Source: Geosiphon pyriformis uo1 (Eukaryota > Fungi > Glomeromycota). From it: 64,000 nt of DNA. Of the stretch, positions 16,367-46,220 are shown piece after piece. The notes under the pieces are model-generated. The model was given only the letters and a program-made list of their open reading frames with translations. It searched no databases and was not told the origin of the DNA. Both the position numbers and the translations under genes were made by a program. Location: contig JAAOMT010000352.1 in assembly GCA_016748015.1 (NCBI GenBank), positions 558,001 through 622,000 of the forward strand, in the 5' to 3' direction. The first letter of the stretch is position 1; each line of letters starts with the position of its first letter.

Positions 16367-17335
16367 TGTTACCAATAGAATTTAGCTATTAATTAGCATA
16401 AAATTACCCTCATAATTCTTATTATTAATTAGCATACATTATTATTTATTTCGATTATCACTTATTATTTAATTAAATTATCAAATATTATTATTTAATC
16501 AATAATCCAATTTGTATTCTAGAAATTAAGATGATCAAATTACACAATACCCTGAACTATTTAACATAGTCAAAATTCGCCAAAATTAATGGAAAATGGC
16601 CGAAATAATCAATAGTTCAGTAAAATAACTTGTAGTTTACCAAAATGTATCTTTAGTTCACCCAAATTGTAGCAAAAAGAAAAGTGCAAGTTTAAAGACT
16701 AGTACTACAGCAAGTTGTATAAAAGAAAAGCTTCTCTCTTCAAGAAAATATATCTTTTCATAGTATTTTATTATAGTACTTTACTTTAGATATCTTAATT
16801 AGAACAAATTATCTTTTACACATTCAAATAAAAATTAAATATTCGAAAACCAAATCCTTTAAATTATTACACTTGAAATTTTCTCAACACAACTAACATT
16901 TCGAAATTGATTAGCTACCAATTTCAGTAATCTGTTAGTGACTCTAGGCCTGGATAGAAAACGCTTCCCTTGTTAAAATTCTATTTCTTTTATATTTCTT
17001 TTATTTTTATTTTTTTTCTTATCATAATTATTAGGGTAGCCTACAAACAAAATTCCTGTAGAAGAGTTGACTTTCATAGCAAATAACTACACATTTTAGT
17101 GAGCTTCCAGATAAGCAATCCCTGAGAAAGAGTTGATGTTTACTACAATGTAACTACACAAAGTAACTGACATGAAATTGGCCATTTTACTTATAAGTTC
17201 AGCAGTTCAAATTATAGGAGATAATTTGAAAATAAATTCAGTTACTGGAGGTCCAACTACTTCCTAAAAACGTGAATTCACAACAAATCAACATTAACAA
17301 TATTTAAGAAAAGAGACCAAAAACCTCTGGTAATA
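16367..17335 (+). repeat. Element A 5' LTR
   Basis: Direct repeat of 25289-26081 + 46061-46220; followed by PBS-like ttTGGTGCT. Confidence 0.92.
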
Positions 17336-17349
17336 TTTGGTGCTTTTTC

Positions 17350-20300
17350 ACAGAAATAACACAGTAATAATAACTTCAAAGTGGCAACCACATCAGACAC
17401 AACAACTCTAAAGTATTATTAGTTAATTTACACTTATTGCAAGCAGAGATTCAACATTTCAGACGGAATTGAAATTGTTAAGAAGACACTTTACCAGTAT
17501 ATTGAAAACTGCATCAACAATTATTTTCTTGAAAATTACAACATTTTAGAAGTTAGAAGCAACCTTTACAATAATTTAGTACACTATTTACAGTTGAGAA
17601 TTGAAGACCTTAACAGTGAAACACTTGCTACTTACTTTCAAGAACTTAATTTTAACATTATTAAGTATTGTGAAAAAACATATTCAGTACAGTTTAAATA
17701 TTTTATTGACTTTAAATCAGAGACAAAAACAAGCAACAAAGGCAAACAAAAACTAAAACAACACTTAAGTATCTTAAATACTCCAAAGACACCAAAAACA
17801 ACTGCCAAACACTTACAAACATCTGAACAAAGAACCAGTGTCAAATTACCACTTTCTATTACACCATTTTCAATTTTACTTGCTCAACCACAAACACCAA
17901 ATTTACTATTTAACTATTTCTCCAGACCAGAAGATTATTAGTCACCTAGAAATCCTACTCAACAACAAGAACCCATATTAACAAGCACCAATATTATTGA
18001 TTACTTATAGGAAAATGAAAGTAATCATTCAGAAAACTTGAAAAGTAAAGAAACTGAATTAGAACAAGAAAAAACTACAGAAAACAAAGAAAAAATAGCA
18101 ACTGCTTATATTGCAAAAATTCCAGAATTTACTGGTGAAAATAATGATATCAGCCCTCAAGAATAGCTTGACAAAGTTCAGAAAGCAGGAGATGCAAATG
18201 GTTGGAATGCAGCAAGAATGCTTAAAGCAATTCCATACTTTCTTTAAGAAACTGCAGAAGAATGGTTTGAAAACTTAGAAGAACCATTTGGAAACTGGCA
18301 AGCATTCAAAAATGCTTTCTTATAAAAGTTTACTAACAACAACATCTCTATTACTCTCCACAATTGCTTTTGCAATATCAAACAAGAAACATCTGAAACT
18401 GTCATAATCTATCTTGAGAGATTCAACAAACTTTTTTGACGAATTCAACAATTAAAAACCAATGAATACTATTCCAATGCCCAGATTTTAGATCAGTTTA
18501 TAGTAGGATTAAAAGACAAATTAATCAAGAAAGTTCACTCACATGTCCCAAAAAACTTGGCAATAGTCATTAGACATGTAAAGAGCTATAAAATAACAAT
18601 AAAAGAAGCAAACCACACCAAACTTGTTAATCTAGCTATTGAAGAAACCAGCTCAACAGCTGAAAAGAAAATAGATCAACTCACAAAGAAAGTTGAAAAC
18701 TATTTTACAAACCAACAACAACAGCAGCAACCACAAAGATACCAACCATCACAACAACACAACCAAAACAATTTTGAATTACCATCCAACAACCAATCTC
18801 AAAATTGTCATTATTGTGGAATCTCAGGACACTGGAAATGAGATTGCAAGAAATTGCAAAGAGATCAACAAAACAGAAGTAATCAATATTACTCTTCATT
18901 ACAACAAACTTATTACCAATCTCCACCACCAACTTATTACCCACCAAGACCACAAAATCAAAACAATTACTATCAACCAGCTCCACAACCAATGCAGTAA
19001 CAATATTAGCAACTTTTGCCAATTCAGCAAAATCAAACACCATCCACTCAACAATATCAAGTACCAGCCAGAAGATTGGTCCAACAAAACCAATTTACAC
19101 TACAAAACTGTTTCTTAACAAACCACAACAAATTTAACCCCAATAATCAACTAGTTTCTCGAAATTTTGTTTAACAAAGACCCACTCAGTTTTACACTCA
19201 ACCCAGTTATTTAAAAATGCAAGAAGAATTAGATTTTTAACAAACTGCACTTTCTGAAAGTGAAGTTGTAGCACCAAGATTAAACCCTTTCAACAATATT
19301 ATCCCACCAGCCCAAATTGCACAAAATGCCAATCTTTCAGATATATTCTCATTCAAATTTGAAGCAAATGAATCACCATTCTTGCTTAGCAATGCAGCAG
19401 TCAATGAGCAAAAAGCTATCACTGCCATGTACACTGAAGCTACAGTAGAAAGAAAACCTATTTGATTAATTCTAGACAGTGGATCCGCTGGAAGTATTAT
19501 TACTTACCAATTAATACAACAACTCAATCAAAATGTTGACAGACCAGCCCAAGCAGTAATTGTTATAGCAGATGGTATGAAAAAGACACCAGTAGGAGAA
19601 ATTGACAACTTCCTATTCACTATTGATAGAATCACTATTTCAGTTAAAGTTCTAGTCATGGATGCACCCCAATACCAAGCTTTTATGGAAAATGATTGGT
19701 TTCTTAAAGCCAATGCAAACTTAAACTGGGAAACTCAGAAACTAAAAATCTTATACCAAGGACAATACACCATAGTATCTGTTATTTATGATACTTTTAA
19801 CAAACAATCAAAAAAGCCCCAGTATTCAAATTCGAAGAAAAGAAAAAAATGCCATTCACTGAAACCTATATGGCCTTTGGATCAACATCCAATTGGGCTG
19901 AGGAAACAGAACAAGAAATTTTTGAAAAAACAAAAGGATGGAAGAAAATTTAGTATTCTATACCAGAACCATGAAAAGAACCATCATACATCTCACTAAA
20001 ATGCAAAGATTGCAAAAAAAAGCTTTTATCTATAAAAGCCTGTATTTTCTCAAAAGAGGAATATGAAACTCACATCTGCTACTTCTATAAAGCATGTTAT
20101 AGAGAATGATTTGGATCCCCAAAAAAAAGTGAAAAATAGGACAACACATCTTATCTTACATGTGGAGATATGTTACCTAAAGAATGCAACTGGATTGATG
20201 TTGCAATAAAAGGAGGAGTATGTGATCAAACCTGTCAATATGCTCTATCAATTTCAGAAAAAGTCAAAAAAGAAACACTATTTGATGCAGCATACAACAG

Positions 20301-22998
20301 TGCTCTCAATAAACTCTACCACTACTCTCATGATGCTAAAATGATTTTTAACTTAGCAATGGCATTAATTAATAGAGCCACCCAAGAAGATGTCTGCCAA
20401 ATAAAAGAAGCTGAATACATTGAGTATATTATAGAATTAGCTGGATTTGATTATGAAGATAAAGCAGAAACCTACCACCAAATTGCAAGTCATATATATC
20501 CAACCAAAGAAGCTTAAATTCAACAATTAAAGCAAATAAACATTCAATTATGGAAAGAATGCATTATGCCTTGTAATAACCAATGGTGTTTAGAATACTA
20601 TGCTTTTAACATTCCCCTACCAAATGAGAATGATGAAAATGAAATCGAATTTAGAGTATCTGAACTGGTAGAAAAACTATCAACCACTCCTATCTACTTT
20701 TTTAAAAATCAACCACCCCTACAACTTAAATATTTTGACAACCATAGTCAAGAGATCAGACCAAAAAAAGCACACAAAATTGATGTTAGATATGATTTAA
20801 AATACTCAGGAAAAGATACTTTGGTTGGAGAACCAAAGTCCTTAACAAAAATTAATCTAAAAATCACTCTTGAAATTTTACCTAGAGCAATAATTCAAAT
20901 TGCATCCAAATTATCATTGGCAAACAAAGAAATTAATTTTAAAAGAAGAGTCATAAATGCAGAATATACTGGAAACATTACCATTATGTTGCAGAATGAA
21001 ACAGACAAATCATTCAGAATTGAACATGCTGAAAAAATTGCCCAAGCAATTTACCTACCCTTAATCAACATTTCGGGTTTACAATCAGTTAACAACAGAG
21101 AACAATTGGGAAAAAGTGAAAGAAAAATGCAAGGTTTTGGTTCAATTGAACAATTTACAGTACCAGTAAACATAGCTCTCAATGCACAGAATGAATTCCA
21201 CCAGATTTTTCAACTTCTTCAACCAATTATCATTTCATTTTTTAAAGAACATCAAGAAATTTACACTTGCTCAAAACCCACCACTACCCAATAAATCTTT
21301 GAATCCAATAAACAAATCTGTTTGAAGCATGAAATCTCAATCCCAAATGTTTATATTCCCAAAAGAATAAAAAAATTTTGAGTTACATTCTACAACCCCA
21401 ACAATTACCTTATTGTCTTATTAAACAAATTAGAAATTAGAATCATACACAGCAATATCTTCTAAGATAAAAACCCTTAAATTGTCTCTAATTTCATCGA
21501 AATTATAAGACATACACTACTTCTAAATCCAAATATCATTCCTACTACTGAAAACTACTATCTTTTGGAAGAAAAACTTTCTCGAATAAATATGGGTCCC
21601 TTAGAATCCCAACAACAAAGACAATTAAAACAGCTAATAGCTGAATTTGCAAATATATTTGCAAAAAACAACAATGACCTTAGAAAAACTGACATTGTTC
21701 AACACCAGATCCACACAGGAGATGCTCCACCAAAACAACAACAAACTTATCAAGTTCCACCTGCTAGCTACCAATTTATCAGAGAAGAGGTTCAAAGAAT
21801 GCTCAATAACGAATTGATTCAATCATTAAAAAGTTCTTGGGCCTCACCAATAGTTCTTGTTAAAAAGAAAAACAGAAAAATCAAATTCTGTGTAAATTAT
21901 TATCAGCTCAACAGCATCACAATTGGAGATGCTTACCCTTTTTCAAGAATTGATGATATGTTAGATGTTTTAGGAAAAGCCAAGTTCTTTTCAACTTTAG
22001 ACTTGAAAAGTGGATACTAACAAGTCAAAATAGATCCAAAAGATCGACTTAAAACAGCATTTACCACTCAAGGAGAAAACTATGAGTTCAATATTATGCT
22101 TTTTGAACTCTGCAATACACAAACAACATTCCAATGACTCATGGATGTTGTATATGAAGAACTCTTGTGGCAATTAGTAATTGTCTATCTTAATAACACT
22201 AATGTGTATTTACCAAGCTTTGAAGTTCATCTCATTCACTTATGAAAAGTTTTTCAATGATTACAGAAAGCAGGATTAAAGTTGAACATTGAAAAATGTT
22301 ATTTTGGAAAAACAAGTTTAATTTTTCTTGAACACATTGTTAGTAAAGATAGAGTCAAACCAAATTCTGGAACAATCAGTACTGTTAAAAACTTTTAAAC
22401 ACTCAAAAATACCACAGAGCTATAAAAATTTGTAGAATTAGCCTCATATTATCAGAAATTTATCAAAGAATTCTCAGAAATTGCCAAACTACTCAATTAT
22501 TTTACCAACAAAAATGTGCTATACAAATGGACTGAAGAACAACAGAAAACTTCTGAAATCCTCAAAACAAAATTAACAACAGCCCCAGTTTTTGCTTATC
22601 CAGACTTCAACAAATAATTTCAACTAGTTACTGATGCTTTACACATAGCATTTGGTGCCATCTTATCACAATTAGATGAAAATGGCCAAGAACAAGTCAT
22701 TATCTATGCCAATAGAACACTCAAGCCATCAGAACTCAAATATGGTTCAACTGAATTAGAAGCAGCCACAGTCATTTGGACTATTAAACATTTTCAACAA
22801 TACCTAAAAAATGGAAAAGAATTTGACATTATAACTAACAATATTGGCCTCAAATGGCTCAATAAAAAGAAAATAGAGCAAAGTGCCAAACAGTCTCAAT
22901 GGAATGATTTCCTAGCAGACTACAAATATATTATATACCACAAACCAGGAAAACTACACACCAATGTTAATAGTCTCTTAAAAATAAGACAAAATTAA
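17350..22998 (+). pseudogene. Element A polyprotein: Gag - protease - Cys-rich region - dUTPase - RT - RNase H
   Basis: Gag CA (IAKIPEFTGE), CHYCGISGHWKxDC, LILDSGS, dUTPase ~20750-21150, WASPIVLVKKK, LDLKSGY, YLNN (from YLDD), RNase H ending in TAA 22996-22998. Start approximate. Confidence 0.88.
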
Positions 22999-23053
22999 CA
23001 CCACTAACAATTCTACTACAACTTACCACTACCAACAAAACAACAAAACAACA

Positions 23054-24439
23054 ATGGATCCCAGAAATTACAACAATCTTAAAAACTATTTGGAGACTTT
23101 TACCATGTTAAAAAGTTGGTTTTCAAGTGAAAAACATCGATTACAATACCAATTCAAACAATATTTTATACATCACAACAAAATTTATTACAAAAATTGT
23201 AAAAACCCAAACCAATCACTTAGATTAGTACAGAAAAATAAAAAAAAAACAATCCTATACAACATGTACACAGATCTATCTTTAGCACACTTGGGAAGAG
23301 ATGAAACAATCCAAAGAACCCTTGAACATTATTTTTGGCTCTACATGCAAAAAAACATTTGACAATATGTAGAATCTTGTGATAGTTGTTAAAGAAGAGA
23401 AGAAACTTGCCCCACAGAACCTTTAAATCCAATCAAAGTTGGACAACCTTTTAACAAAGTTGGAATTAATTTAGTCGAACCATTACTTATCACAACCCAA
23501 GGAAATTGTTATATTGCAGTTGCAGTAGATTATCTTACCAAATGGCCTGAAGCTAGAGTCATCCAAAGAGCAGATGCAAAATCAGTAGCAAATTTTATCT
23601 ATAAAGACATTATTTGTAGACATGAATGCTCAATTGAACTCTTATCAGATCAAGAAACACATTTTGTGAACAACTTAATACAAGAAATTTGTGAACAATT
23701 CAATGTCAAAAGATTTTTATCATTATCTTATTATCTTCAAACAAATGGACTTGTAGAATGTTTCAACAGAACATTGTGTGAATCTTTAGCCAAAGTCTCA
23801 ACAGATTTTGAGCAGGAATGAGATATCTTTATTCCATCAGTGTTACTAGCATACAGAACTCTAAAACAAGATACTATGAAGCACACACTATTTGATCTTA
23901 CTTATGGAAGAACAGCAACATTACCAATTAATTTTACAGTGGAAACATACCCAGTGCAACCAATCAATAAAAAAAACTTTCAAGAAATACTCCAAAGAAA
24001 AGCTTACATACTCCTTAGTACATTGAAAGAAAAAAGACACATAGCAGCCTCTCATATTGAACACTCTCAAGCCTTACAAAAAGAAAAACATGACAACAAA
24101 TTGCCACCAGTTACCAACAAATTTAAAGTTGAAAATAAAGTTCTCCTACACAGAACTAAAACTGAAAAACAATGGAGTGGAAAATTTGAACATAAATGGG
24201 ATGGACCATTTTATATTCACAAAATTCTAGATAATAGATTATACAAGTTAAGACTTAATGACAAAGTACTAGTAAAAGTTGCACATGGAGATAGATTAAA
24301 ACACTATTATTCCAGAAACAATTTTGAACTATTAATTTCACAAATTAGTACACATTTCTCTTTAGTTAATCCTGAAGATATTTTCCGAAATCTAGAACCA
24401 ATAATTATAATAAAACAACAATCAAACTTGAATACTTAA
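23054..24439 (+). pseudogene. Element A integrase, separate ATG-initiated ORF
   Basis: MDPRNY start, zinc-binding H..C-x2-C region, DYLTKWPEA, QTNGLVE, WDGPF (GPY/F) domain; no chromodomain seen. Confidence 0.88.
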
Positions 24440-24600: not shown

Positions 24601-25314
24601 ATAATTATTCCCCAAAATATCTAACAAATATTCCAAAAATTAATGTTAGCTTTGAAAACACTTCCTGACTTATCTATAACGATTAATAGAAGTCAAATTA
24701 ATTACATTCAGAAAGAAATCACAGTTCCAGTAGTAAATAATTCTCAGAACTATTACTTCTATAGAAGAAAAACAAAAGGTCACTCTGAAAATAGGTTACC
24801 AGAACTTTTGAAGCAAGCATTGAAAGAAAATCTTTTAATTGCCCTTATTGACATTCCACCAAGTGCCACAATGCAACAAAAACTTTTACTATTTCTTAAT
24901 AAACAGAACAATGAACATACTCTTATATATAGATATTTTCATATTGGAAAAACACTTTATGAATGAAAACTAGAACTTGAAACAACCAACATTACTCTTG
25001 AGGCTATACAAAAACAAATTCACAATGAATTCAAGACAGCAGCTAGACCAACAAACACTCGTTACAAACTTAGAGCAGTATTTAGACTCTATGATTTATT
25101 CAACACTTGTGAAAATGTCCTACAAAACCTAATACTCTATCCAATGAAGATTCAATACATTGGGAAGCTCACAGAACTGAAATTTCAACAATTTTCAGAC
25201 CAGATCACTTCAATTATTTTGGACCACTATTTTAATATTACAGATAGTGCTTGGACTTTGATGGAGCTCAGTCTTAAGGAAAAGATTATGTTACCAGTAG
25301 AATTTAGCTATTAA
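24601..25314 (+). pseudogene. Element A ORF3, unknown ~237-aa protein overlapping PPT and 3' LTR
   Basis: One frame from ~24601 to TAA 25314 with only two internal stops (TAA ~24622, TGA 24964), both explicable by C>T; homologous to ORF3 of B and C. Confidence 0.75.
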
Positions 25315-26081
25315 TTAGCATAAAATTATCCTCATAATTTCTATTATTAATTAGCATACATTATTATTTATTTTGATTATCAAATATTATTACTCAATCA
25401 ATAATCCGATTTGTACTCTAGAAATTAAGATAATCAAATTACACAATACTCTGAACCATTTAACATAGTCAAAATTTGCCGAAATTAATAGAAAATGGCC
25501 GAAATAATTAATAGTTCAGTAAAATAACTTGTAATTCACTAAAATGTATCTTTAGTTTACCCAAATTGTAGCAAAAAAAAAAGTGCAAGTTCAAAGACTA
25601 GTATTACAGCAAGTTGTATAAAAAAAGAGCTTCTCTTTTCAAGAAAATGTATCTTCTCATAGTACTTTACTATAGTATCTTACTTTAGATATCTTAATTG
25701 AAACAAATTATCTTTTTACAAAATTAAATAAAAATTAAATATTTGAAAACCAAATCTTTTAAATTATTACACTTGAAATTCCCTCAACACAACTAACATT
25801 TTTGAAATTAATTAGCTACCAATTTCAGTAATCTGTTAGTGACTCCAGGCCTGAACAGAAAACGTTTTCTTTGACAGAATTCTATTTCTTTTACATTTCT
25901 TTTATTTTTCTTTCTTTTCTTATCATAATTATTAGGGATAGCCTACAGATGAGATTCTTGTAAAAAAGTTGACTTTCATAGCAAAGTAACTACACATTTT
26001 TTTAGTGAGCTTTTAGACAAGCAATTCTTGGGAAAAAGTTGACATTTACTACAACATAACTACACAAAGTAACTGGCATGG
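25289..26081 (+). repeat. Element A 3' LTR, left part (interrupted by B)
   Basis: Matches the 5' LTR; preceded by PPT aaggaaaaga. Confidence 0.9.
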
Positions 26082-26871
26082 TGTTATTCATAAAAAAAAA
26101 CATATATAGAAAAATAGGAGACCAATAAGTGAATAGTATTTAGCATGTGAGCACATTGCTCAGCAATGTAGAGCAATGTTAGAAATCATGGCACATTGCT
26201 TAAAAAAATCATAGCACATCACTCAAAAATGTGAGCAATCTCATAAAACATCAATTATGTATATATAGCAGTAGTGTCAGAAATAAAAAAAGCAGAATCC
26301 TTCTATTAAAGACCTCCCAGTTTAGATTTCATCTAAACAACCTTCCAATTCACAAATATTAACAAATAATTATTCACTATCTCAATTCACTCTTTACTAT
26401 CAACATGAAGTGTTGATAGTAATTGATACTTAACCATGCTAAAACAATAGCTCTTGATCATAGCTATTGATGGGATACTAACTTGCAATTGCTTTTACTT
26501 GTTCTTTTATTTTCTTTTATTTTTTTTTGTTATTTTCTTTGGTTTTACTAAATTGATTAAGGATTAAGCACTGAGATACAGACATCATAAGAACTGGTAA
26601 AAGATCTGTGAAACAAGAGTAGAACACTTATAGATTTAAGGATAGCTTACTAGGAAAATTACCAGCCACCATGCTGAGAAAAAAATTTGACAGAATTGCA
26701 ATTCTGAGAGGCTACTGAAAACAACTATTAAATCTCTGTTTATTATACAAAAAACTCTGCAACAAATCTTCAGATCAACAAAACCTTCAAATATCAACAC
26801 TAGAATACCAATTAAGTACCAAGTTACAAATTTGTTATTTGATTTGAGATCCCAAATAATCATCTGTAACA
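26082..26871 (+). repeat. Element B 5' LTR
   Basis: TGTTA...GTAACA; direct repeat of 45256-46056. Confidence 0.92.
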
Positions 26872-26873
26872 TT

Positions 26874-26890
26874 TAGTGCTCCCTGTGAGG
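26874..26890 (+). promoter_or_regulatory. Primer-binding site (consensus TGGTGCTCCCTGTGAGG), possibly tRNA-Ile(UAU)
   Basis: 2 nt after the LTR end; related motifs at 39306-39322 (-), ~58378 and ~63820. tRNA identity is from recalled similarity only. Confidence 0.65.
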
Positions 26891-29800: not shown

Positions 29801-30204
29801 CGGCAAAGAAAAACAGAAAGAAACCAAACTTATCTGGAATGCTGACCTAGCCTGGAAAAATAACCATAAACAGGATGAGCTACCAACTTGAGAATGGGAA
29901 AAAACCGACAAAGGGAAAGGAAAAAGGAAGAAAGAAGACTTACTTGAAGAAACCACCACCACAAAAGAAATAACTAGTAGTTGGGAAAGAGAGTATTCAA
30001 GGGAACCAATAAAAAAACTATCATACATACCCCTCAAATACAAAGACTGTGAAAAGAAACTTTCTTTCATAAGAGCTTGGGTGGTGCAAACAAAGACTAC
30101 TGGACATAAACACATTATTACTATAAGCTGTGCCATAGAAAATGATATGGGTACCCAAAATGTCAAGGAAAATGGGACAATGAACCATGTCTCACTTGTG
30201 GTGA
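26876..30204 (+). pseudogene. Element B Gag - protease - start of Cys-rich region
   Basis: PIAKLEKFTDEKD (Gag CA), CHYCGKQG knuckle, LILDS protease; cut at CLTCG by element C. Confidence 0.85.
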
Positions 30205-31599: not shown

Positions 31600-31660
31600 T
31601 TTTCTTGGTTGCTTTTGTCGTGTATACTGTGTCTTTTATATACTCTTTTATTGTTTAATT

Positions 31661-33036: not shown

Positions 33037-33066
33037 CTTTTGTTATATTTTTGTGTTGAAATGTTT

Positions 33067-36000
33067 TTAGATTTGTTTCATTCATGACAGTTCATCGGCA
33101 TTTCCATTGTCTTTTCCCTTTTTATAATGTATTGTATAATTAAATGATGAAGGTTCTATTTTCCATCTGGCATGGCAATTGTCTGCAAATTCTTGTTTCT
33201 GGATTGAAGTCAATCCTTTGTGATCAGTGTACACTTCAAACTTTTGACTCAAGTATTCCTTTCATTTAATAACAGTCCAATAGATAGCTAAGTGTTCTAG
33301 TGCTAGAGTTTTATAGTTCTTCTCAGCTGGACTTAAGCTTCTATTGGCATAAGCTACTGGATGTTTTCTCTCATTTGATCCTTTCTGTGATAGTACTGCT
33401 CCCAATGCTTCACCTGATGCATCAGTGGTAATTATGAATGATTTGCTGTGATCTGGATACATCAATACTGGAGCTTGGATAAGCTTTTTTCTTAATGTGT
33501 CAAATGCTTCTTGTTGAGCTTTGGTCCATTTATACTTCACATTCTTGGTCTGTAGATGGTAAAGTGGCTGAGCCAGTTTTGAAAAGTCTTTGATAAAATG
33601 GCAATAATATCCTGTGAATCTCAAGAATGCTCTTAATTCTGTGAGATTGTTTGGTACTGGAAAGTTCTTGACAACTTCAATCTTGTCTGGATTCATTTTG
33701 ATTCTATCATTGCTTACTACATGTCCCAAAAACTTGAGTTCAGTTTTTTCAAAGAAACATTTGGTTGTGTTTAGTTTCAATTCTGTTCTTCTCAATCTTT
33801 CAAACACTTGTTGGAGATGATGCAAATGATCATCAAATGTTTTTGAGAACACATTGGTGTCATCTAAGTATACAACTACTGATTTCTATAGTAACCCAGT
33901 ATAGATGATTTTCATGAGTCATTAGAATGTTGCTAGAGCATTCATCAAGCCAAATGGCATAACTTCAAACTCAAAATTTCCTTCTTTTGTGGTGAATGCT
34001 GTTTTTTCTTTGTTGGCTGGGTACATGGCTACTTGCCAGTAACCATTATCCAAATCTAGTGTTGAGAATCATTTATTTCCTCCAAAAGCATCGAATAGTT
34101 CTTGGATCTTTGGAGTTGGATAGCTATCACTTTTTGTTACTCCATTCAGTTTTTGGTAGTCTACACAAAAATGGATTTTTCCATTTTTCTTACAGACCAG
34201 TACTACTGGTGATAACCATAGACTCATTGATGGCTAAATTAGCCTATTGTCAAGCATTCAGTTAATTTCTTGACAAATAATCTCATGGCTAGCTGGTGGT
34301 ACTCTGAATGCTCTTTGTTTTATTGGCATTGCATCTCCAGTTTTGATTTGATGCTGGATGATATTGGTTTGGCCAAATTCATTTTCGCTGGTAAAGATGT
34401 CATTGAAGTTGTTGAGTAATATTTTGAGTTGTATCTGTTGAAGTGAATCCAGATTCTCCATGTTCATTTGTTCTAATTGTTCTGGTTGGAGCAAATAACA
34501 TTCACTTCTTCTATAGATGGTTTGTGATGTAATATCCACATATCCGCAAAGCTGTGGAAAATCTGGAATGTGGTTTGGTGGTTGATTTTCAACTTTGGTG
34601 GTTAAATACCCAATGATGGTTTCCTTTGGTATTTTGATAACATTTTTGGTTGTGTTGTAAATGGGGATTTTGATATTTTTGGGGCTTTTGGCTGATATGT
34701 AGAGATTAGTGAGTCCAATTTCTCTGAATTCGCAAATAGTGGCTTCTGCTTTAAACAACTGAGCCTGATTTTTTACTTTTCTTTTTATGGCTAATCTATA
34801 CTGGCCATATGATGGAATAAAAATTGTTTGACAGATTGAGATAATTTCTTCTTTGCCAACAATTTCTTCCTCTGCCATATTAACTGGTATATTTATTCTA
34901 TCTGTTGATCCAAATCTCTGTATTCCTTTAGCTGTAATCCCTAATTCTTCCCTGTTTCTCACTGATACTAACTGAGCTATTTTGACCAGAGACAGGAATA
35001 TTGTCTGCACTATCTTTTCATTTGGCTCTATTACATAGGCCTTTTCTGAATTGTTTTGTAGCATAGCAATAATATTTTCCACATATTCTGCATCAATTAT
35101 TTCTCCTTTGATGTTAATTCCTCTTTTTGCTAGACTACTCCTAGATGCTAGTTGAACCATTATGGTTGCTGGAATTTCCAGTGCTATCTTCAGATCAATG
35201 CAAATGCGTGAATGTAGTTCCAATTTGATGGCATTTTTTTCAGGAAATCTCAAATCAAACCCTACATCAGTATTATGTGCATGCTCTGGCATGATATTTT
35301 TGCCATTATCACTAAACTATTTAAGTTCCTGTTCCTTAGTGAAGTTAGGAAGTGCGATGAATGTTTCAGGATTTGAATCGGAGTTTAAATCATCATAAAT
35401 TTTGTTACTATTCAGAGTGGAGCTAAAACTGTTGTTTTCATTATTGTTATTGTCAGAGTTTGAATTGGAATTGAAAGTTAATTCCGATTCTGATGTGCAG
35501 TTGCTTATTGGTTTATCTTCTTCTGGGATTGTGTAGATCATGTGTGGTAGTGGATTGTAAATGAGGTCACACTCATTACAATATTAAAAGTCACAGGAGA
35601 TTAAGCAATGTTGACATAATCGAGTGTTTAACTGCTCTAAATGCTGCTCCTGTTCTTCCCTAGTAGGTGCCAAATACTGGTAATGTTCATGAAATTCTTT
35701 TGGATTGTTTTCAATGTTGCCAAAAATGTCAAAAGTTTGGACGTATTCGGGTTTAAGAAGAGATAAAGAGTTGTTTTTGATCTCTAGTATTTTGCTGGTT
35801 GTCACACCTTTTGCTTTTACATATGCCATTCTCCATAGTTCATTTTTGTCATGAGGATATCCTTCCAATTGTCACAATACTCATTTTCAGGTGTTGTTGA
35901 TTGGTGTTTCTTTGCTTACCTAATTGTTTATTAGTATGATGTATTGGCATGTCTCATCGCATGTTTTTCCATGCCCAGGGATGTCATTCCACATTCCTTT

Positions 36001-39000
36001 GTCAGATAGGATAGTTCTACATATGAGACATGGTTGGTTATTCCACTTTTCTTGTCGTTTTGGTTATCCAAAATGCTCTATAACACATGGGCGGCAGTAA
36101 AATCTTGTGGCCATGAAGTATTCCTTGTTGTCGCCACAGCATGCGCCTATTGACGACAATTTCTTGCCACAATCAATGCATTCCAATTTTGGTTGACAAT
36201 AATTGGATGGTGGTGATGAAGTATAAGCATATGAACTATAAATACTGCTGGGGAGAGTAGTTCTTTCTTCTTTTTTTTTTTTTCTCTTATCAATTTCTTT
36301 CCACTTCTAGTTTGCTGGTTTGTTTTGGTTGTTATCAGTTTCTCAGTTTTGGTTAGTATTCCAGATAAGTTCTTTGTTTTCCTTCCTTTTTCCCTTGTTA
36401 TTCCAAGAAAATATTGGTGGTAGCTTATTGTGGTCTTTGTTGGCTCAAGAGACTTGGTACACTTCCCAAGTAGATTTCTCTTTTTCTTCTTTGAATTTGA
36501 TGAAGAGAGCTGATGGTGTGATGATGGGTTTGAAATAACCACACATGGCTGGTACACATGTGTGTCATCCGTTCTGACTAAGCTGGAGCTCTTGGGTGTT
36601 CCAATCAAGTATTGCATTGATTTTGAACAGCCAGTCATTACTTACCAGTGTTTAGTATTAAGTAGCTTCTATGACTAATACCTTGATTGGTATAGTGATG
36701 CCATTGATTTTTATGGACAAGTTATCTATTTTACCAATTGGAGTTTTGGTGGCTCCATTAGTGGTAATTATCCTTGTACTGACAGCTCAATCAACTTGGC
36801 AACCTAATTGGTTCATAAGCTGTCTTGTAATAATACTATCAACTGATCCACTATCTAGGATCAGTTTGATAAACTGATCATCAATTTTGCCATCCATGTA
36901 CATCACCATGATAGATTTTTCCTCAAGTGCAGCTCCACTAAACAAAGGAGTTTCTGTCAGTTCCTCGATTTCGAAAGGAAATATAACTGCTAGAGACTTG
37001 TCTTCCATGACAGTGGCTGGCAGAATATTGGTAAGTGATTGCTTTCATTTGGATTTCCGAGTGTTGGTTGAGGCGTTTTCTGAGATAGCCAGAAGACTTA
37101 AATAGTTCTGAGAACTCGGGTTTTGAGTATACCTGGTTTCTGTACTTCTTTGTCATAATCTTGACAGCTGGTTGAATGAATTGGGGATTGGTTAGTGAAC
37201 AACTATCACTGATCTCCAGTTTTGGGTAACTCTCAATCTAGAGTTTTCTGATGTCATTTGAGCTGGGTTTGATGGCAGTGTTTGAACTGTGGGTGTTTGA
37301 TAAATTATTTGTGGCTGTGGTGGTTGATATATTATTAGTGGCTGCAGTTAATAAACTAGAGGTTGATATATGGGTGGTTGATATATTGGCTTTTGCATTA
37401 TTGGCAGGTAAGTTGGTTGATATGGGGCTGGATTGGATTGATAACTCAGAGTTGGGAACTGGCAATCGGAGTTTTGATATTGATTTCCTGATTGTTGGTT
37501 ACTATAAGCATGGCAATTGGCTCTAAGGTAACCTTGTTTACCACAGTTGTGGCAAATTTGCATTTCTTAATGCCACAGCTAATTTGTTAATGATAATAGA
37601 CATAACTGATTTTGGAAACAATTTGTGTTTCCCTGATTATTACATCATTGAGAAGGCTAATAAATTGGGTGATTGTCAGCTAAGTATCCCTCCAATTTCT
37701 GATTAATTGAATCACTGAATTGTTTCAGTTTGGAATCTAATTCAGATGACCCATTCATTACTAGATTAATGGCTTGGACGTGATTGGCCTCTGACTCAGC
37801 TGATTCGAAATCTCTGGTGCATGTGACTGTATCTTGAAGGGTGCCTGGATGCAACAGATGTACATGTTGCAAGATACTGCTGCACAGACCACAGATAAAC
37901 TGGTTGAGGATCTGTGGTGCTGTGAAATATTTGGCATCAATTGCTTGAATTTGGCATAAGTTTCTATGGAAGTGTTCTAAGTAAGTGGTAACTGCTTCAG
38001 TTTCTCCTTGTTTGATTGTGGTGAAGGTGTTGGTTAAGTAATTAATGCTGTTATTATTACTGAAATATCCCAAAAATGCAGTTTTGAATTCCTGGAATGT
38101 TTGAGGTTTAACGTCTAAACTCTGATACCACAAGTCAGCAGTATCTTGTAGAAAATAGAGAATCACTTGAAGGGCTCTGTCATTGTTCCATCCATTGGCT
38201 GTGATGGCTTTTTCCATATTGTTAAGCCATACTTGGGCATCGTCCTCTTCACTGGTAAATTTCTTAATTTTGGCGATTGGAGCATAAGCCATTGGTTGTT
38301 GTTGTAGTTGCTGCTGGTTTTGTTAAGGTAGCTGTTGTGGCTGTTGTTGTTGTTTAGTGTTTGGTGGAGCTGGTGGTGGATTAATCACAATTACTGGAGG
38401 TAAGTGTTGTTAATTATTAATGTCAGGGTTTTGATCATTCTAATTGTGCTGTGTTTGAAAATTCAGAGTTTCAATTTCCAGTTTTTCTAGATTTAGATGT
38501 TTCAGAGTTTGAACATTTGGGGTTTTAAATTTCAGGTTTTCTGGGATCGGATTTTGGTAAGTAAATTCCTGGTTCTCAAATTTTTTTTTCTTTTCTTCTT
38601 GTTCTCTTTCCAATTCTGTGACTTCCCAAGGACTCATGGTTCCGAAATCTGGTTGAGATGGCAGTAATCAAAATTCTGATGGTGTTGGCAATCATGATTT
38701 AAATTCTTCAAAATATGTGCCATATAGTCCTAATAAGTCTTTTTTCATTTGTTTACTTTGAAATGGAAATTGTCCAAATGTTGATGTCACGTTTGATATA
38801 GACATGCCTGCTACTGCGATATTGATGGCACCTCCAAGAGTATAATGATATGATGGATTTGTAGGTGATTCAATTCTGTGTTTCTTCCAAGTGGATGGTT
38901 GGATACATTAGAGTGTTACTGCTGGTGTTTGTAGTTTTCCTTTGTCTTTACTTGTGTAGGTGATTGGGTATCTCTGTTGTGTGTAATGTTTAATTTCTTT

Positions 39001-39290
39001 ATTAATCTCAGTGATGATGGATGCAAAATTATAGTTTGTTGGTAAGCTGCTGTTTTGGATTAATTTGTTGTAAAAAGTTTCCCTTGCTGATTCGGTATTT
39101 GTTGCTGTTCCTAATAAGTAGGCAATTCTCTCATTGATGTAAAAGTTGAAGGCTGATTCTACTGATATGTGATTCAGGATTAATTCCAAGTGTTAACAGT
39201 AGTATTGAAATAAGAATTTCGCAAATCCTAAATAGTTTGCTCCTATATTTTCTGATTCTGCCACTGTTGATTTATTTGTTGGTGCTGGTT
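33067..39290 (-). pseudogene. Element C polyprotein Gag-PR-Cys-rich-dUTPase-RT-RNase H
   Basis: MAYAPIAKIKKF (Gag), CHNCGKQG, LILDSGS, dUTPase 34900-35292 (GFDL, RSS, IDAEY, IVQ, FGST), YLDD, TDAS. Confidence 0.9.
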
Positions 39291-39324
39291 CTCTGTAAGA
39301 TTATATCTCACAAGAAGCACCAAA

Positions 39325-40194
39325 TATTACAGATAATTACTTGGGGTCTCAAGGCAAATAACAAACCCGTAATTTGGTGCTCAATTAATATAATGCTGTT
39401 AGTAAGATCTGAAGATGTGTTTTTCTGAAGGTTTTGGTTGAGTTTTTTGTATAATGAACAGAGATTCAGTGATAATAGCTTTTATTTATAGCTTCTCGAA
39501 ACTGCAATTTCATCAATTTCTTTCTTAGCTTGATGGCCGGTATTCCTTCTGGTAAGATATTCTCAATTGAGTGTCCTACTTTTATTTCTGGGTCTTTTAC
39601 CAGTGCTATATTCTGACATCAGTACCCCGTGCATTAATCCTCAATAGAGTTAGTAATAACAACAATTAAGACAAGAAAATAAAAGAAATGACATAAAGTA
39701 ATGAGCCAAGACAATACACAAGTTAGTATTCATCAATAGCTGTGATCAAGAGCTATTGTTCCAGTGTGATTAAGTATCAATTGCTATCAACATGGAATGT
39801 TGATAGTGAAAAATGGATTTGGATGGTAAATAATTTATTTATTCAATATTTGTAAAATGGGAGATTTCTAACTAAAAAATTTTTCTTTTTCTACTTTTAA
39901 TGCTACTGCTATATATACATAATTGATGTTTTATGAAATCGCTCACATTTCCAAGTGATGTGCTATGATTTTTTGAGGAATACTCACATTGCTGAGCGAT
40001 GTGCTCTAATTTTCTAACATTGCTTCACATTGCTAAGCAATGTGCTATGTTTTCTGACATTGTTCCACCTTACTGAGCAATATGCCATAATTTCTGACAT
40101 TGCTCCATATTGCTGAGCAATGTGCTCACATGCTAAATACTATTTTTTTATTAGTCTGCTATTTTCTCTATCTGTTTTCTTTTTATGAGTAATA
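39325..40194 (-). repeat. Element C 5' LTR (870 bp) with ~40-bp tandem palindromic units
   Basis: Units start at 39985, 40026, 40066, 40106 with core CACATTGCTGAGCAATGTG. Confidence 0.92.
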
Positions 40195-43139
40195 GCAAAC
40201 AGTTGCTTGATAAAAGAATGTGGAATGACATTCCTGGGCAAAAAGAAATGTACAATGCTTTATGCCAATAGATGATCCTTATCAGCAACTGAGTGAGTTG
40301 TAAAATGCCTATTACTGCAGCCTGGCACCAAGTAATTAATCACTTGAACAGATATCCACATGATGAGGATGAGATCTGGCATATAGCCAATACCAAAATC
40401 GAAGGAGCCATGCCCAGCAAAATCTTAGAAATCAAAAACAATCCACCAAAACCAGTTGACATTATCTTTATCCCAAATTTGGATGCATTTCTTGACATAG
40501 AGACAGGCCCAGAGGAATTTCATGAGCACTACCAGAATTTGGCACTCACTAGAGAAGAGTAAAAACAATGCTTGGAAGAAATAAACACCCAATTATGTGA
40601 CTACTATTTAATTCTATATGACTTCCAGTATTGTAATGAGTGTGATTTTATTTACAATTCACCATCATGCATAATCTACATGATTCCAGAAAAAAAACCA
40701 ATCAACAGCTGTACATCAGAATCGGAATCAAGTTTCAATCCCAATTTAAACTCCGACAACAATGATGAAGAAAATAACAGTTCTAGCTTCACTCAAATTG
40801 GCAACAAAAATATCAACAATTCAGACTCTGATTCAAACCCCGAAATATACATTGCACTTTCTGATCTTTCCAAGAAGCAGGAACTTAAATGGTATAGTGA
40901 CAATAATGAAAATATTATGCCAAAATGTGCACATGATACCAATACAGAGTTTGATCTAAGATATCCAAGAAAAAAAGTCATCAAATTGGAACCAAATTTG
41001 TGCACATATGTTGATTTCAAAATAGCTCTGGAGATTCCAGCAACAACCATGATTTAATTAGCATCTAGAAGTAGTTTAGCAAAAAAAAGAATCAACATTA
41101 GAAGAGGAATAATTAATGCGGAATATGTAGAAAATATTATTATTATGCTACAAAATGACTCAGAAAAAGCCTATATTATAGAGGCAAATGAAAAGATAGC
41201 ACAGGCAATATTCTTATCTCTGGTGAAAATAGCTCAGTTAGTTTTAGTAGAAAAAAGGAAAAAACTAGGTATTACAGTAAGAAGAAAACAGGAATTTGAA
41301 TCAATAAGTAGAATAGATATACCAGTTAATATAACAGAGGAAGAAATTATTGACAGAAAAATTATCTCAACCCATCAATCAATTTCCATTCCACCATATG
41401 ACCAGTATATATTAGCCATAAAAAGAGAAGTAAAAGATCAAGCTCAGTTGTTTGAAGCAGAAGCCACTATTTGTGAATCAGGAGAGATTGGACTCACTAA
41501 TCTCTACATATTAGCCAAAAGCCCAAAAAACATCAAAATTCTCATCTACAATACAATGAGAAGAGTCATTAAAATACCAAAAAGAACCATCATTGGATAT
41601 TTAACCACAGAAGTTGAGGATCAACAGCCAAACCACATTCTAGATTTTCCACAGCTGTGTGAATATGTGGACATCACATCACAAATCATTTACAGACAAA
41701 GCAAATCTTATCTGCTCTAATCAGAACAATTGGAACAAATGAACCTGGAAAATCTAGACCCACTTTAACAGATGCAACTAAAAATGTTACTTAACAATTT
41801 TAATGACATCTTTGCTAGCAAAAACAAATTTGGCAGAACCAACATTATCCAGCATCAGATCAAGACTGGAGATGTAATGCCAATCAAACAGAGAGCATAC
41901 AGGATACCACCAGCTAGCCATGAAATTATTTGTCAAGAAATCAATCAGATGCTTGACAACAGGTTAATTCAGCCATCAATAAGTCTATGGTCATTACCAG
42001 TGGTACTAATCCAGAAGAAGAATGAAAAGATCTGCTTTTGTATAGACTACTGAAAACTGAATGGAGTAACCAAAGGAGATAGCTACCCAACTCCAAAGAT
42101 TCAAAAATTGTTTGACGCTTTTGGCAGAATGAAATGGTTTTCAACTTTGGACTTAGACAGTGGTTACTGGCAAGTAGCCATGAAGTCGGAAGATAAAGAG
42201 AAAATGGCTTTCACAACACAAGAAGGGAATTTTGAATCCGAAGTAATGTCATTTGGCTTAATGAATGCTCCAGCCACATTTCAATGACTTATGGAAATTG
42301 TCTATACTGAACTGCTATGAAAATCAGTAGTCATATACTTGGATAATACCAATGTGTTCTCAAAAACATTCGATGATTATCTACATCATCTCCAACAAGT
42401 CTTTGAAAGACTTAGAAGAGCAGGATTGAAACTAAATACAACTAAGTGTTTCTTTGGAAAAACTGAACTCAAGTTTTTGGAACATGTTGTAAGCAAAGAT
42501 GGTATCAAAATGGATCCAAATAAGATTGCAATAGTAAAGAACTTTCTAGTACCAACCAATCTGACAGAACTAAGAGCATTTTTGGAATTCACAGACTACT
42601 ATTGTCGTTTTATCAAGAACTTTTCTAAACTGGCTCAGCCACTTTATCATTTACAAACTAAGAATGTTAAGTATGAATAGACAGAAGCTCAACAAAAAGC
42701 ATTCAACATACTGAGACAAAAGCTTATTTAAGCTTTAGTATTAATGTATTCAAATCACAGCAAACCATTTATCATCACCACCAATGCATTAGGCCAAGCA
42801 TTAGGAGCCGTACTATTACAAAAAGGACCAGATAAAAGAAAACATCTAGTAGCTTATACCAGTAGAAGCTTAAGCCCAGCTGAAAAGAACTATAAAACTT
42901 TAGCACTAAGACACTTAGCAATCTATTGGGCTGTCACCAAATAAAAAGAATACTTGAGCCAAAAGTTTGATGTGTATACTAACCACAAAGGATTGATTTC
43001 AATTCAGAAGCAAAAATTTGGAGATAATTGTCATGCAAGATAGAAAATAGCACTATTACCATATACATTTACAGTATATTATAAAAAGAGAAAAGACAAT
43101 AGAAATGCCAACAGTTTGTTGTGAATGAGACAAATCTAA
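40195..43139 (+). pseudogene. Element B Cys-rich region - dUTPase - RT - RNase H
   Basis: Continues CLTCGEQLLD across C; dUTPase ~40918-41310; LDLDSGYWQ, YLDN; stop TAA 43137-39. Confidence 0.88.
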
Positions 43140-43169
43140 AAACATTTCAACCCAAAAATATAACAAAAG

Positions 43170-44546
43170 ATGAACACACAAAATTACAAACAACTCTAAT
43201 ATTATATAAATACCCAATTGTTCAAGGAGAAATTATCTTAAAAAGAACAAAACAACATAAAACAGCAATCAAAATATTTTATCAATCATCAAAATATACT
43301 TTACTGAAAAAACAGAAGAAATCCAAATCAACCAACCAAAGTAATTACAGAATCAAAAAAAGAGACAATATTGTTTAACATGCACTCAGATCCAACAGCA
43401 AAACATTTTCATAAAGAAACAACAATAGAAAAAACCAAAAAAAGATATTATTGGCCATTAATATATCCAGACATTATCTAATATGTTCAAAATTGTGATG
43501 CTTGTTAAAGAAAAAGAGGAATAAGACCAAGTGAATCATTGAGACCAATTAAAGTAAGACAACTATTTAATCAAATTGAAATTGACTTAGTTGAACTATT
43601 AACAATCACTAGCAGAGACAACAGATATATTACAATAGCCATGGATTATTTTACTAAATGGCCAGAAGCAAAAGCCATTCAAAGAGCAGATGCAGAATCC
43701 ATTGCCAAATTCATCCATTAAGACTTGATTTGTCAACATGGATGTCCAAAAAAACTACTATCTGATCAAGAAACTCATTTTGTGAATAGAACATTGACAG
43801 AATTAAGTTAAAGATTTGGAATAAAAAGACCATTATCATCACCATATCATCCACAAACCAATGGACTAGTTGAAAAATTCAATAAAACATTGTGTGAAGC
43901 AATTGCCAAAATCAGTCAAGAAAACCAAGACAAATGAAATTTGTTTATATCATCAGTATTATTTGCTTATCGGACAATGAAACAAGATACTACACAAGCA
44001 ACACTATTTGAATTAGTATATAGTAGAACAGCAACATTACCAATTGAGATAGAGGTCAATACATATCCAACTAAACCAATAACAGAAGCTAATTTCCAAA
44101 AAACATTGTTGAGAAGAACATATGACTTAATGGAAACACTAGAAAACAGATGACAAAAAGCAGCTGATAATATCCAAAAGTCTTAAGAAAAGCAAAAAAA
44201 AAGACACAATAACCAGTTATCAGATAAACCAGTTGAATTCAAGATTGGAGACAAAGTACTTCTACATTGTACCAAAGTGGAAAAACAATGGAATAAAAAA
44301 TTCGACCCCAAATGAAACAAACCATTTCACATAGAAGAAATTCTTAAAAATAGAGCTTATAAATTAAGATGGGACAACAAAATTTTAGCCAAAGCAGCAC
44401 ATGATAATTGTCTAAAACCATATTACCAAATAGCATCATCATCTACCAATAACATTTCACAATTAGGAGTACAATGAATACTAGTTTAACCAGATAAGAT
44501 TTCACAAGATCTGGAACCAATCATAATCATTGGACCAAACATGTAA
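43170..44546 (+). pseudogene. Element B integrase, separate ORF
   Basis: MNTQNY start; MDYFTKWPEA, YHPQTNGLVE; ends LEPIIIIGPNM*. Confidence 0.87.
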
Positions 44547-44606
44547 AATTAAACAATAAAAGAGTATATAAAGACACAGTATACATAACAAAAGTAACCA
44601 AAAAAA

Positions 44607-45302
44607 ATGGAAATACCAGATCATATTCACACCATAACTCAACAATTATTCCAGATCTTAAGTCAACAATTTTTAGACATAGAAATTATTGTTAACAACC
44701 AAATAATTTGTTATCAAAACACCAAAAGAAAGACAAAAAATACACCATATTAGTGGTTACCAAAGAATGATAAAAACTGGTCAAATAACATAATAGAAAA
44801 AGTGAAGAACACTTTTGGAAAAATACCTATTATGGCACCAACAGAAGAACTTACAAAAAAGAATTGGAAGCAATGAACAAAACAACTTCCAATATCTTAC
44901 TGCTATTACCAATTAGGTCAAAAGTTGAATATTCAAGAGTTGTATATCAACAAATCCAAGAGAATATTTAACCAAAACATAATACAGCAAATTGAAGAAT
45001 TTATTGGAAAGAAGACAAACTCAACACTACATGTTAGAACAATTTACCGACTGCACAACATATTTCAGAACTATCCAGAAATATTGTTACACTTCAACAT
45101 GGAAACCATAACCATTAACCAATAGAGAAGAATAAACAATAGACAAGTAGAAGACGTAAAAAATAGAGTCGAACAAACAATACTAGAAAAAGAAGTATTA
45201 GAGCTAATTCAAAATAAGATTTTGATAGAGCTCAATATTAAAAAGGAGAAGATAATGTTACTTATAAAAAGAAACAGATATAGGAAAATAGGAGACCAAT
45301 AA
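44607..45302 (+). pseudogene. Element B ORF3, unknown ~231-aa protein overlapping PPT and 3' LTR
   Basis: ATG 44607, one frame to TAA 45302, three internal stops explicable by transitions. Confidence 0.78.
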
Positions 45303-46056
45303 GTGAATAGTATTTAGCATGTGAACACATTGCTCAGCAATGTGGAGCAATGTCAAAAATCATGGCACATTGCTCAAAGAAATTATAGCACATTACTTGA
45401 GAATGTAAGCAATCTCGTAAAACATCAATTATGTATATATAGTGGTAGCATTAGAAGTAGAAAAAGCAGAATTCTTCCATTAAAGACCTCCCAGTTTAGA
45501 TTTCATCTAAACAACCTTCTAATTTACAAATATCAATAAATAATTATTCACTATCTCAATTCACTCTCCACTATCAACACTTCATGTTGATAGTAATTGA
45601 TACTTAATCATGCTAGAACAATAGCTCTTGATTACAGCTATTGACAGAATACTAACTTGTAATTGCTTTTACTTGTTCCTTTATTTTCTTTTATTTTCTT
45701 TTATTTTTTTTTGTTATTTTTCTTTGGTTTTACTAAATTGATTAAGGATTAAGCACTGAGATACAGACATCATAGGGACTGGTAAAAGACCCATGAAACA
45801 AGAGTAAAACACTTATAGATTTGAGAATAGCTTACTAGGAGGATTACTGGTCACCACATTAAGAAAAAAATTTGACAGAATTGTGATTCCGGGAGGCTAC
45901 TGAAAACAACTATTAAATCTCTGTTCATTATACAAAGAACTCTGCAACAAACCTTCAGATCAACAAAACCTTCAGATATTAACACCAGAATACCAATTAA
46001 GCACCAAGTTACAGGTTTGTTATTTGATTTGAGACCCCAAATAATTATCTGTAATA
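45256..46056 (+). repeat. Element B 3' LTR
   Basis: Preceded by PPT aaaaaggagaag; matches 26082-26871. Confidence 0.92.
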
Positions 46057-46220
46057 ACGGAATTGGTTATTTTACTCATAAGCCCAGCAGTTCAAATTAT
46101 AAAAAATAATTTAAAGATAAATTCAGTTATTGAAGGTCCAACTACTTCTTGAGAACATGAATTCACAGCAAATCAACATTAACAATATTTAAGAAAAGAG
46201 ACCAAAAACCTCTAATAACA
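46057..46220 (+). repeat. Element A 3' LTR, right remnant
   Basis: Matches ~17172-17335 and ends ...taataaca. Confidence 0.9.

Follow-up and report, generated by a model that had tools for sequence, protein, structure and literature searches.

Integrase as a separate gene in nested, decayed long terminal repeat retrotransposons of Geosiphon pyriformis and in their soil-fungal relatives

Cleavage of integrase from Pol normally guarantees that the enzyme enters the particle together with reverse transcriptase (RT), and a widespread group of long terminal repeat (LTR) elements without integrase in Pol would therefore need another way of expressing and packaging it. This problem is raised by positions 16367 to 46220 of a 64,000-nucleotide stretch of the fungus Geosiphon pyriformis uo1 (contig JAAOMT010000352.1, positions 558,001 to 622,000; the whole stretch is called the window below). 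Three nested LTR elements, A, B and C, each carry an integrase open reading frame (ORF) downstream of the end of Pol, followed by a third ORF (ORF3). Is the integrase really a separate gene, how would it be made, and what kind of element is this? The answer that we consider probable is that A, B and C are dead copies of a lineage derived from Ty3/gypsy, likely of the Glomeromycotina, in which Pol comes to an end after RNase H, integrase is a gene with its own ATG, likely expressed through a short mRNA of its own, and ORF3 is soluble.

Self-comparison and inspection of the edges placed the outer ends of element A (plus strand) at 16367 and 46220, with element B (26082–46056, plus strand) nested in the 3′ LTR of A and element C (40194–30205, minus strand) nested in B. 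The order of parts is the same in each copy, namely Gag, protease, a Cys-rich insert, dUTPase, RT and RNase H, then a stop, a short spacer, a Met-initiated integrase and ORF3. A Pfam scan of 30 fragments recovered protease, dUTPase, RNase H and integrase (H2C2, rve and SH3) from A; from C it recovered Gag, dUTPase, RT and RNase H, and from B dUTPase; the remaining domains were located in the three copies, in identical order, by BLAST with these pieces. The integrases of B and C are 80% identical, whereas A, whose integrase is 52% identical to that of C, represents a distant family. The layout which a first-pass annotation of this DNA had ascribed to two divergent families is indeed common to both. 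The same annotation had extended it in part to two further elements. If these are matched to the right features, one (48027–48931) is a solo LTR without ORFs, and the other (about 60650–62800, minus strand) retains only an integrase tail, ORF3 and an LTR.

In A, RT and RNase H (21595–22998) close with a TAA, which is followed by a 55-nt, A/C-rich spacer without ATG (22999–23053) and by an integrase ORF of 461 codons (23054–24439) that has three internal stops, H2C2, rve and GPF/SH3 regions and no chromodomain. The TAA at the end of RNase H occupies an identical aligned column in A, B and C, and the integrase ATG lies at the same integrase position in all three, in another frame than Pol in A and, in B and C, in frame and 30 nt after the stop, with a second TAA between. 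In C, the ORF from Gag to RNase H (33067–39270, minus strand; a single frame, 2068 codons long, in which 38 stops occur, the last included) is separated by the 30-nt spacer at 33037–33066, which holds the second in-frame TAA, from the integrase ORF at 31661–33036, which has one frameshift close to its end. In B, the part that carries the rest of the Cys-rich insert, dUTPase, RT and RNase H (40195–43139) also ends in TAA, and the integrase ORF occupies 43170–44546. A fourth, more decayed family at 56578–57950 (minus strand) repeats the pattern, with the end of RNase H, a stop near 57870, a spacer of about 65 nt and integrase in another frame. All three nested copies are dead, with many stops in each, and stops derived from CGA codons are common to A, B and C inside RT and integrase too, so that the window alone is no proof of a split and the proof has to come from relatives.

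The best 120 integrase homologues are 327–453 amino acids long, 118 of them begin with Met, and those that are named come from Rhizophagus. When metagenomes were scanned with 38 aligned integrases, 80 loci came back; the integrase N terminus was matched in 68 of these, with Met at profile position 1 in 66, and integrase is a separate ORF in all 43 loci that hold both the RNase H end and the integrase start. Over these 43 junctions the three frame offsets occur 10, 17 and 16 times, the gaps run from −20 to more than 500 nt, and the Pol stop is TAA in 26, TAG in 12 and TGA in 5. This spread excludes a fixed frameshift or readthrough. The idea that ribosomes get to integrase, as a part of the Pol polyprotein, through a programmed frameshift or by reading through the stop would suit B and C, which keep it in the Pol frame, and a readthrough-type TGA-CTA does exist in one subclade, but at another place, between protease and RT. 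With any offset, any stop codon, a variable gap and a fixed Met at the junction, and two in-frame stops in B and C, this route is largely refuted, and we hold it to be very improbable. An origin by decay, with the split and ORF3 as artefacts of dead copies, could draw on C-to-T changes, which yield the shared stops at CGA codons; it is refuted by relatives with open ORFs, in which the same split is present and ORF3 is conserved, and has a negligible chance of being right. The detached integrase reported by the first-pass annotation is therefore confirmed as the real layout.

Since the locus-search profile, built from stand-alone integrases, favours split elements, a search for longer forms was run. 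Its top rows were NCBI gene models from Rhizophagus and Cetraspora and one metagenome ORF, P0276, which is truly fused. Five long Rhizophagus and Cetraspora gene models join RT and RNase H to integrase without the RNase H end or the integrase start, and P0279, which has Gag as well, is a sixth such model; judged from the protein models alone, these look like spliced gene predictions.

In relatives, Pol extends 220–345 amino acids past RNase H in L024, L027, L039, L044, L054, L056, L070, L074 and L077, a subclade in which most loci bear the hairpin described below, and three of these tails were scanned against Pfam with no match. An extra ORF of 174 codons lies between RNase H and integrase at L079:9471–9992. 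The in-frame TGA followed by CTA, which we take to be a readthrough-type signal and which likely acts as one after protease, was seen between Gag-protease and RT in 9 of 11 loci (L011:2498, L012:2882, L015:870, L033, L042, L058:3290, L062:902, L079:7930 and L080:780); L073 has TGA-CCA there, and L055 has neither.

How, then, would a detached integrase be expressed? A separate short mRNA is favoured, on evenly balanced terms, over reinitiation, which seems somewhat less probable, and over internal ribosome entry, which seems improbable. A purine stands at −3 of the integrase ATG in 60 of 66 loci, and ATG density falls from 2.8 per 100 nt at −300 to −200 to 0.84 in the last 100 nt before integrase; as a measure of the depletion, 12 ATGs compare with 38.2 expected from base shuffling or 26.1 from dinucleotide shuffling. 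Within one subclade the gap between RNase H and integrase ranges from an overlap of 14–20 nt up to a distance of about 450 nt, and 2 and 6 ATGs occur in two spacers that each measure about 200 nt, which argues that the integrase start does not track the Pol stop; it is this range among close relatives that favours the short mRNA. Some of the long spacers arise from stops inside the Pol tail. Integrase and ORF3 would be translated from a subgenomic RNA, the 5′ end of which, made by an internal start or a splice acceptor, would lie about 100–200 nt or less from the integrase ATG, and integrase would join the particle in trans by binding RNA, Gag or ORF3.

The same layout could instead be served by the full-length RNA, with integrase translated by termination-reinitiation after the Pol stop, a mechanism used by LINE-1 ORF2 and some fungal RNA viruses. 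Pol and integrase overlap or are at most 2 nt apart in 6 of the 43 loci, the spacer measures 20–210 nt in 29 (24 of them without ATG) and is longer in 8, and translation in cis would help packaging. Spacers of 190–450 nt, some with several ATGs, nevertheless occur in close relatives of the overlapping loci, and in one subclade a stable hairpin stands 0–32 nt upstream of the integrase ATG, which leaves reinitiation as a possible but minority explanation.

This strongly covarying hairpin measures about 37–45 nt, with a purine-rich bulge of 11 nt on its 5′ side and CANNGUGA at the top, and ends 0–32 nt before the integrase start. A covariance model recovers it in 28 of the 80 loci (L020:1218–1254, L037:1130–1166 and 26 more), 24 of which formed the training set, and does not find it in the window. 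Since 95% of cells are paired, both partners vary in 9 of 14 pairs, the position is always directly upstream of integrase and Rfam had no match in 20 loci, the hairpin, or an A-rich spacer in other families, might recruit ribosomes internally or bind a regulator encoded by the element. It is missing in the window and in 52 of the 80 loci, some of which are too short upstream to show it, and this makes the idea doubtful as a general explanation, and the short mRNA is retained as the preferred one.

ORF3 was sought in the 34 loci where the sequence continues for 700 nt or more past integrase; 28 have a downstream ORF of at least 95 amino acids and 21 a member of one homologous family, the profile of which detects 546 representatives at E ≤ 0.001. 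The family is predicted to be all-helical, with eight helices (AlphaFold predicted local distance difference test score, pLDDT, 93). The maximal 19-residue hydropathy is 0.75–1.07 in the ORF3s of the window and exceeds 1.6 in only 1 of 150 family members, and no membrane segment is apparent. By this measure ORF3 is not an env-like membrane glycoprotein, and an env-bearing LTR element of the Errantivirus type was rejected because the hydropathy is too low; the earlier description of a soluble 3′ gene is supported. No Pfam or PHROG family was common to more than 2 of 131 members, sequence searches of PDB returned designed helical proteins only, and structural searches gave nothing at E ≤ 0.001 with Foldseek (PDB and BFVD) and nothing at Z ≥ 5 with VIA, results that are no proof of a new fold. 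A likeness to DUF1016_N was considered and discarded (E = 0.11, in 2 of 131 members). ESM Atlas gave leads only, to a closterovirus coat protein, a T4 translation repressor and DUF6192, sharing 133–152 features.

The ORF3s of the window (A, 24643–25314, about 220 codons with one internal stop, crossing the polypurine tract into the 3′ LTR; B, 44607–45255; C, 30975–31599 on the minus strand, its frame shifted by one small deletion near the start) are longer than those of the main family. Those of A and B match the 230-amino acid ORF3 of L003/P0252 among 150 proteins (E = 3e-12 and 3e-10; A is 32% identical over 131 amino acids). From their shared position and motif spacing, homology with the main family appears likely, though not certain. 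ORF3 might, as one tentative proposal, be an accessory for bringing integrase into the particle or for making the short RNA. Other ORFs seen near integrase in relatives encode a NUDIX hydrolase (L031:1945–2886, E = 1e-10) and a helix-turn-helix protein (L017:6546–6941).

Purifying selection acted on all ORFs between B and C, with ratios of nonsynonymous to synonymous substitution (dN/dS) of 0.13 for RT, 0.20 for the Cys-rich insert, 0.22 for integrase, 0.28 for RNase H, 0.33 for dUTPase and 0.34 for ORF3, against 0.55 for the LTR read as codons.

Trees were built from the proteins returned by the searches only. For integrase, a 162-row tree took in 40 of the 120 stand-alone integrases, 119 of 120 long proteins and the 3 window copies. 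All its stand-alone integrases fall together with the gene models and P0276 in a single clade (0.94), which received a Shimodaira–Hasegawa-like approximate likelihood-ratio (SH-aLRT) support of 94 in quick IQ-TREE trees of 51 and 28 rows. The nearest fused relatives are Gypsy-type Pols, and Ty3 was the best PDB match for both RT (E = 4e-90) and integrase (E = 5e-48) of the relatives; a search of IMG/VR gave 3 weak, unrelated-looking matches. The detached integrase and ORF3 are supported as marks of a broad soil-fungal clade, wider than the first-pass annotation had supposed.

Several results pull the other way and have to be weighed here. Beside the bias of the locus-search profile, the fused P0276 nests inside the clade, and a clade of split elements only was rejected (approximately unbiased (AU) test, p = 0.010), for which the simplest account is that P0276 is a re-fusion. 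The RT and RNase H tree (136 rows) gives the split group only 0.77–0.87 and places the fused P0276, P0291 and P0281 among or beside it. On the side of expression, the ATG depletion before integrase shrinks under dinucleotide shuffling and GTA is equally depleted, YAG acceptors within 30 nt of the integrase ATG are not enriched (40 of 66, with 37.8 expected), the tight coupling of stop and start in six loci fits reinitiation, and two raw poly(A) RNA runs were uninformative, with 32 and 39 short partial reads against L023, none of them 95% alike and none with joints. The window ORF3s match the main ORF3 profile weakly (A, E = 2.4e-4; B, 0.28; C, 0.47; the ORF3 of L003 scores 0.008), with HHalign probabilities of 6.7% and 0.2%, and even the LTR that serves as control gives a dN/dS lower than 1. 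A continuous Pol-integrase ORF was found in none of the 43 loci, the ORF3 family is present in 21 of 34, and P0276 is the one fused relative inside the clade.

The dUTPase and the Cys-rich insert have a far narrower distribution. In A the insert (19801–20700, with CxxC pairs) follows a frame change on an A-run, and the dUTPase domain lies at 20761–21144 (Pfam PF00692, E = 7e-13). All 101 proteins matching this region, in a search that covered proteins of 640–2039 amino acids, are G. pyriformis gene models, to which dUTPase and the insert are restricted among the proteins searched; this points to G. pyriformis, or a fungus close to it, as the host. At the five dUTPase motifs, the motif residue is the one most often found in these models, 15 Cys columns are kept in at least half of them, and the ten stops of C in this region fall mostly at W, Q or R columns. 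Neither part was matched in any of the 80 loci, and the stretch from protease to RT is 228–483 amino acids in the 19 loci that span it, compared with about 800–890 in the window, so that the two parts are an addition at the level of the family. The combination of dUTPase, Cys-rich insert, detached integrase and ORF3 that the first-pass annotation had put forward as one therefore comes apart, with the last two marking the broad clade and the first two found in 0 of 19 relatives. The dUTPase would have been active and would have kept uracil out of the cDNA. The AlphaFold model of the insert is poor (pLDDT 61, predicted template-modelling score 0.29), and Foldseek returned only sub-threshold rows of LIM and other zinc fingers. 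By eye, a second stretch after dUTPase, at 34500–34880 (minus strand) in C and in the same place in B, resembles a decayed dUTPase-type repeat. Many genes listed as ‘hypothetical’ dUTPases in Geosiphon, and as stand-alone ‘integrase core’ genes in Rhizophagus, probably do not belong to the host but are fragments of such elements.

The target duplications, given as 4 bp by the first-pass annotation, have this length at four of four insertions, and none of the four is perfect: GCAT/ACAT for A (16363–16366/46221–46224), ATGG/ACGG for B (26078–26081/46057–46060), GTGA/GCAA for C (30201–30204/40195–40198) and CTAC/CCAC for the solo LTR (48023–48026/48932–48935), with 3, 3, 2 and 3 of 4 bases matching. 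The middle of each is CG or a deamination product of CG, and the mismatches in three of the four are those expected from CpG decay. Judging from these four target sites, the integrase would prefer CpG-centred targets.

In what class do such elements belong? Ty3/gypsy elements are transcribed from the LTR, primed by tRNA, reverse transcribed in a Gag particle and integrated with a 4-bp duplication. The elements described here resemble these Metaviridae in their TG...CA LTRs (some ends decayed to TA), primer-binding site and polypurine tract, in a Gag capsid with CCHC, in having protease, then RT, RNase H and lastly integrase, in the GPF motif (present in the integrase of A) and in a 4-bp duplication within the 4–6-bp range; they differ in that integrase is a separate Met-initiated ORF outside Pol and is followed by a third, non-env ORF. 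As they work like Ty3/gypsy but lack integrase in Pol, they are filed as allied to Metaviridae. The suggestion of a distinct, possibly undescribed, virus-like lineage stands for the distinctness, given the detached integrase and the soluble ORF3; ‘virus-like’ applies only in the sense of any ordinary LTR element, ORF3 not being env-like. What LTR elements generally code for is Gag-Pol, or separately Gag and Pol (PMC12440569), and in the open-access literature, as far as its text was available (10.1101/2021.03.30.436303 and PMC10508981 included), no description was found of an LTR element with integrase as its own gene; Repbase, GyDB, REXdb and deposited repeat libraries may hold one. LTR sequence makes up 41.2% of the G. 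pyriformis genome (PMC11952901), and ‘integrase’ is not mentioned in the available part of that source.

Other known groups fit less well. A chromovirus was rejected, as no chromodomain match was found in the integrase tail of A or in the 120 stand-alone integrases, and so was Troyka, which has CG...CG termini and a 3-bp duplication (PMC12440569), compared with TG...CA ends and 4 bp here. Capture of dUTPase by fungal Gypsy elements is already known from Postia PosPlaTy3-5, Phanerochaete and Tuber Tmt1 (PMC2864245), and in PosPlaTy3-5 the domain lies between protease and RT, as here. Those elements were grouped with chromodomain-type elements and have one or two ORFs, with no separate integrase described in the available text (PMC2864245), whereas the window elements lack a chromodomain. 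Bdelloid LTR elements share a dUTPase in Pol and a non-env accessory ORF3, but their ORF3s are esterases, exonucleases, coiled-coil or membrane proteins and their integrase lies in Pol (PMC5408684). For plant Athila/Tat elements, the comparison is with two Tanacetum proteins that have an extra RNase H and were taken as Tat-like; they lie within the same broad integrase group, with long-branch warnings that make the placement unsure. Integrase remains part of Pol in Tat, which carries an additional RNase H, whereas Pfam gave no second RNase H in the window. A fungal origin of a major plant retrotransposon is what the title of a paper cited in PMC13468544 announces.

Ginger1 DNA transposons share a free-standing Gypsy-like integrase that opens just before a YPYY-type N-terminal motif, and have 4-bp target duplications centred on CG, such as CCGG and ACGG (PMC2836005), the latter being the right flank of B; unlike the elements here, with their LTRs and RT, they possess terminal inverted repeats and C-terminal protease domains but no RT (PMC2836005). 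Two Ginger1-like proteins group with the clade and plant Tat rows in the 51-row tree (SH-aLRT 99) and are placed elsewhere in the 28-row tree, and a sister relation of Ginger1 to the clade, with an AU p of 0.33, is neither shown nor rejected. The stand-alone integrase clade bears on how Ginger1 transposases are related to Gypsy integrases. One bolder reading, rather unlikely in our judgement, is that mycorrhizal fungi harbour a large, old LTR branch with a three-gene programme of its own. It would comprise a free integrase gene, in one subclade with a dedicated RNA hairpin at its start, and an accessory ORF3 of a new fold by which integrase is carried into the particle; the integrase would seek CpG and be, among living LTR elements, the nearest kin of Ginger1 transposases. 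If true, it would show how an integrase leaves Pol and becomes a DNA transposase.

The remaining parts of the nest are as follows. The 5′ LTR of A (16367–17335, flank GCAT) runs from TG to TA, the latter a decayed CA, and is followed after 2 nt by a putative primer-binding-site-like sequence (17338–17355) that begins with TGG and is of the same type in B and C. Gag (N-terminal extension, capsid and CCHC) and protease of A form one frame with 13 stops (17381–19800) that has a GTG start and no nearby ATG. The 3′ LTR of A is broken by B into a first part (25289–26081) and a last part (46057–46220), which has a CA end and is followed by ACAT. Sequence comparison, including BLAST, assigned to B a 5′ LTR (26082–26871, flank ATGG) and an internal first part with primer-binding site, Gag, protease and the start of the Cys-rich insert (26872–30204); its 3′ LTR (45256–46056) is followed by ACGG. 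The LTRs of C, on the minus strand, lie at 30205–30973 (3′) and 39325–40194 (5′). Outside the nest are a B/C-related solo LTR (48027–48931, plus strand, flanks CTAC and CCAC) and a 3′ fragment of a B/C-like element with integrase tail, ORF3 and LTR (60647–62802, minus strand). Identity within the LTR pairs is 89.9% in A, 89.6% in B and 91.2% in C, and the differences are mostly transitions (91 of 95, 77 of 82 and 66 of 68, respectively); the copies decayed by transitions.

The Gag frames of A (17381) and C (39264, minus strand) open with GTG, which has A at −3 and G at +4; in B (about 26933) and in the 58-kb fragment (about 58440) the codon is GTA, and no in-frame ATG follows for more than 150 codons; Gag possibly has a non-AUG start. 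The frame change of A after protease (about 19810) falls on an A-rich run in slippery-site register, and C has no shift there; as seen in this one copy, the change may be a programmed shift or decay. Decayed non-LTR retrotransposons, whose parts include endonuclease, RT and RNase H as well as an RRM-like ORF1, occupy 5692–11978 (minus strand), 14007–16058 and 46227–47959, and element A lies next to such fragments. The DNA of the window is AT-rich and CpG-poor, except near a host STT3 oligosaccharyltransferase gene (52151–54657, minus strand), the only stretch that retains CpG, with an observed-to-expected ratio of about 0.9–1.1 compared with mostly less than 0.3 elsewhere in the window.

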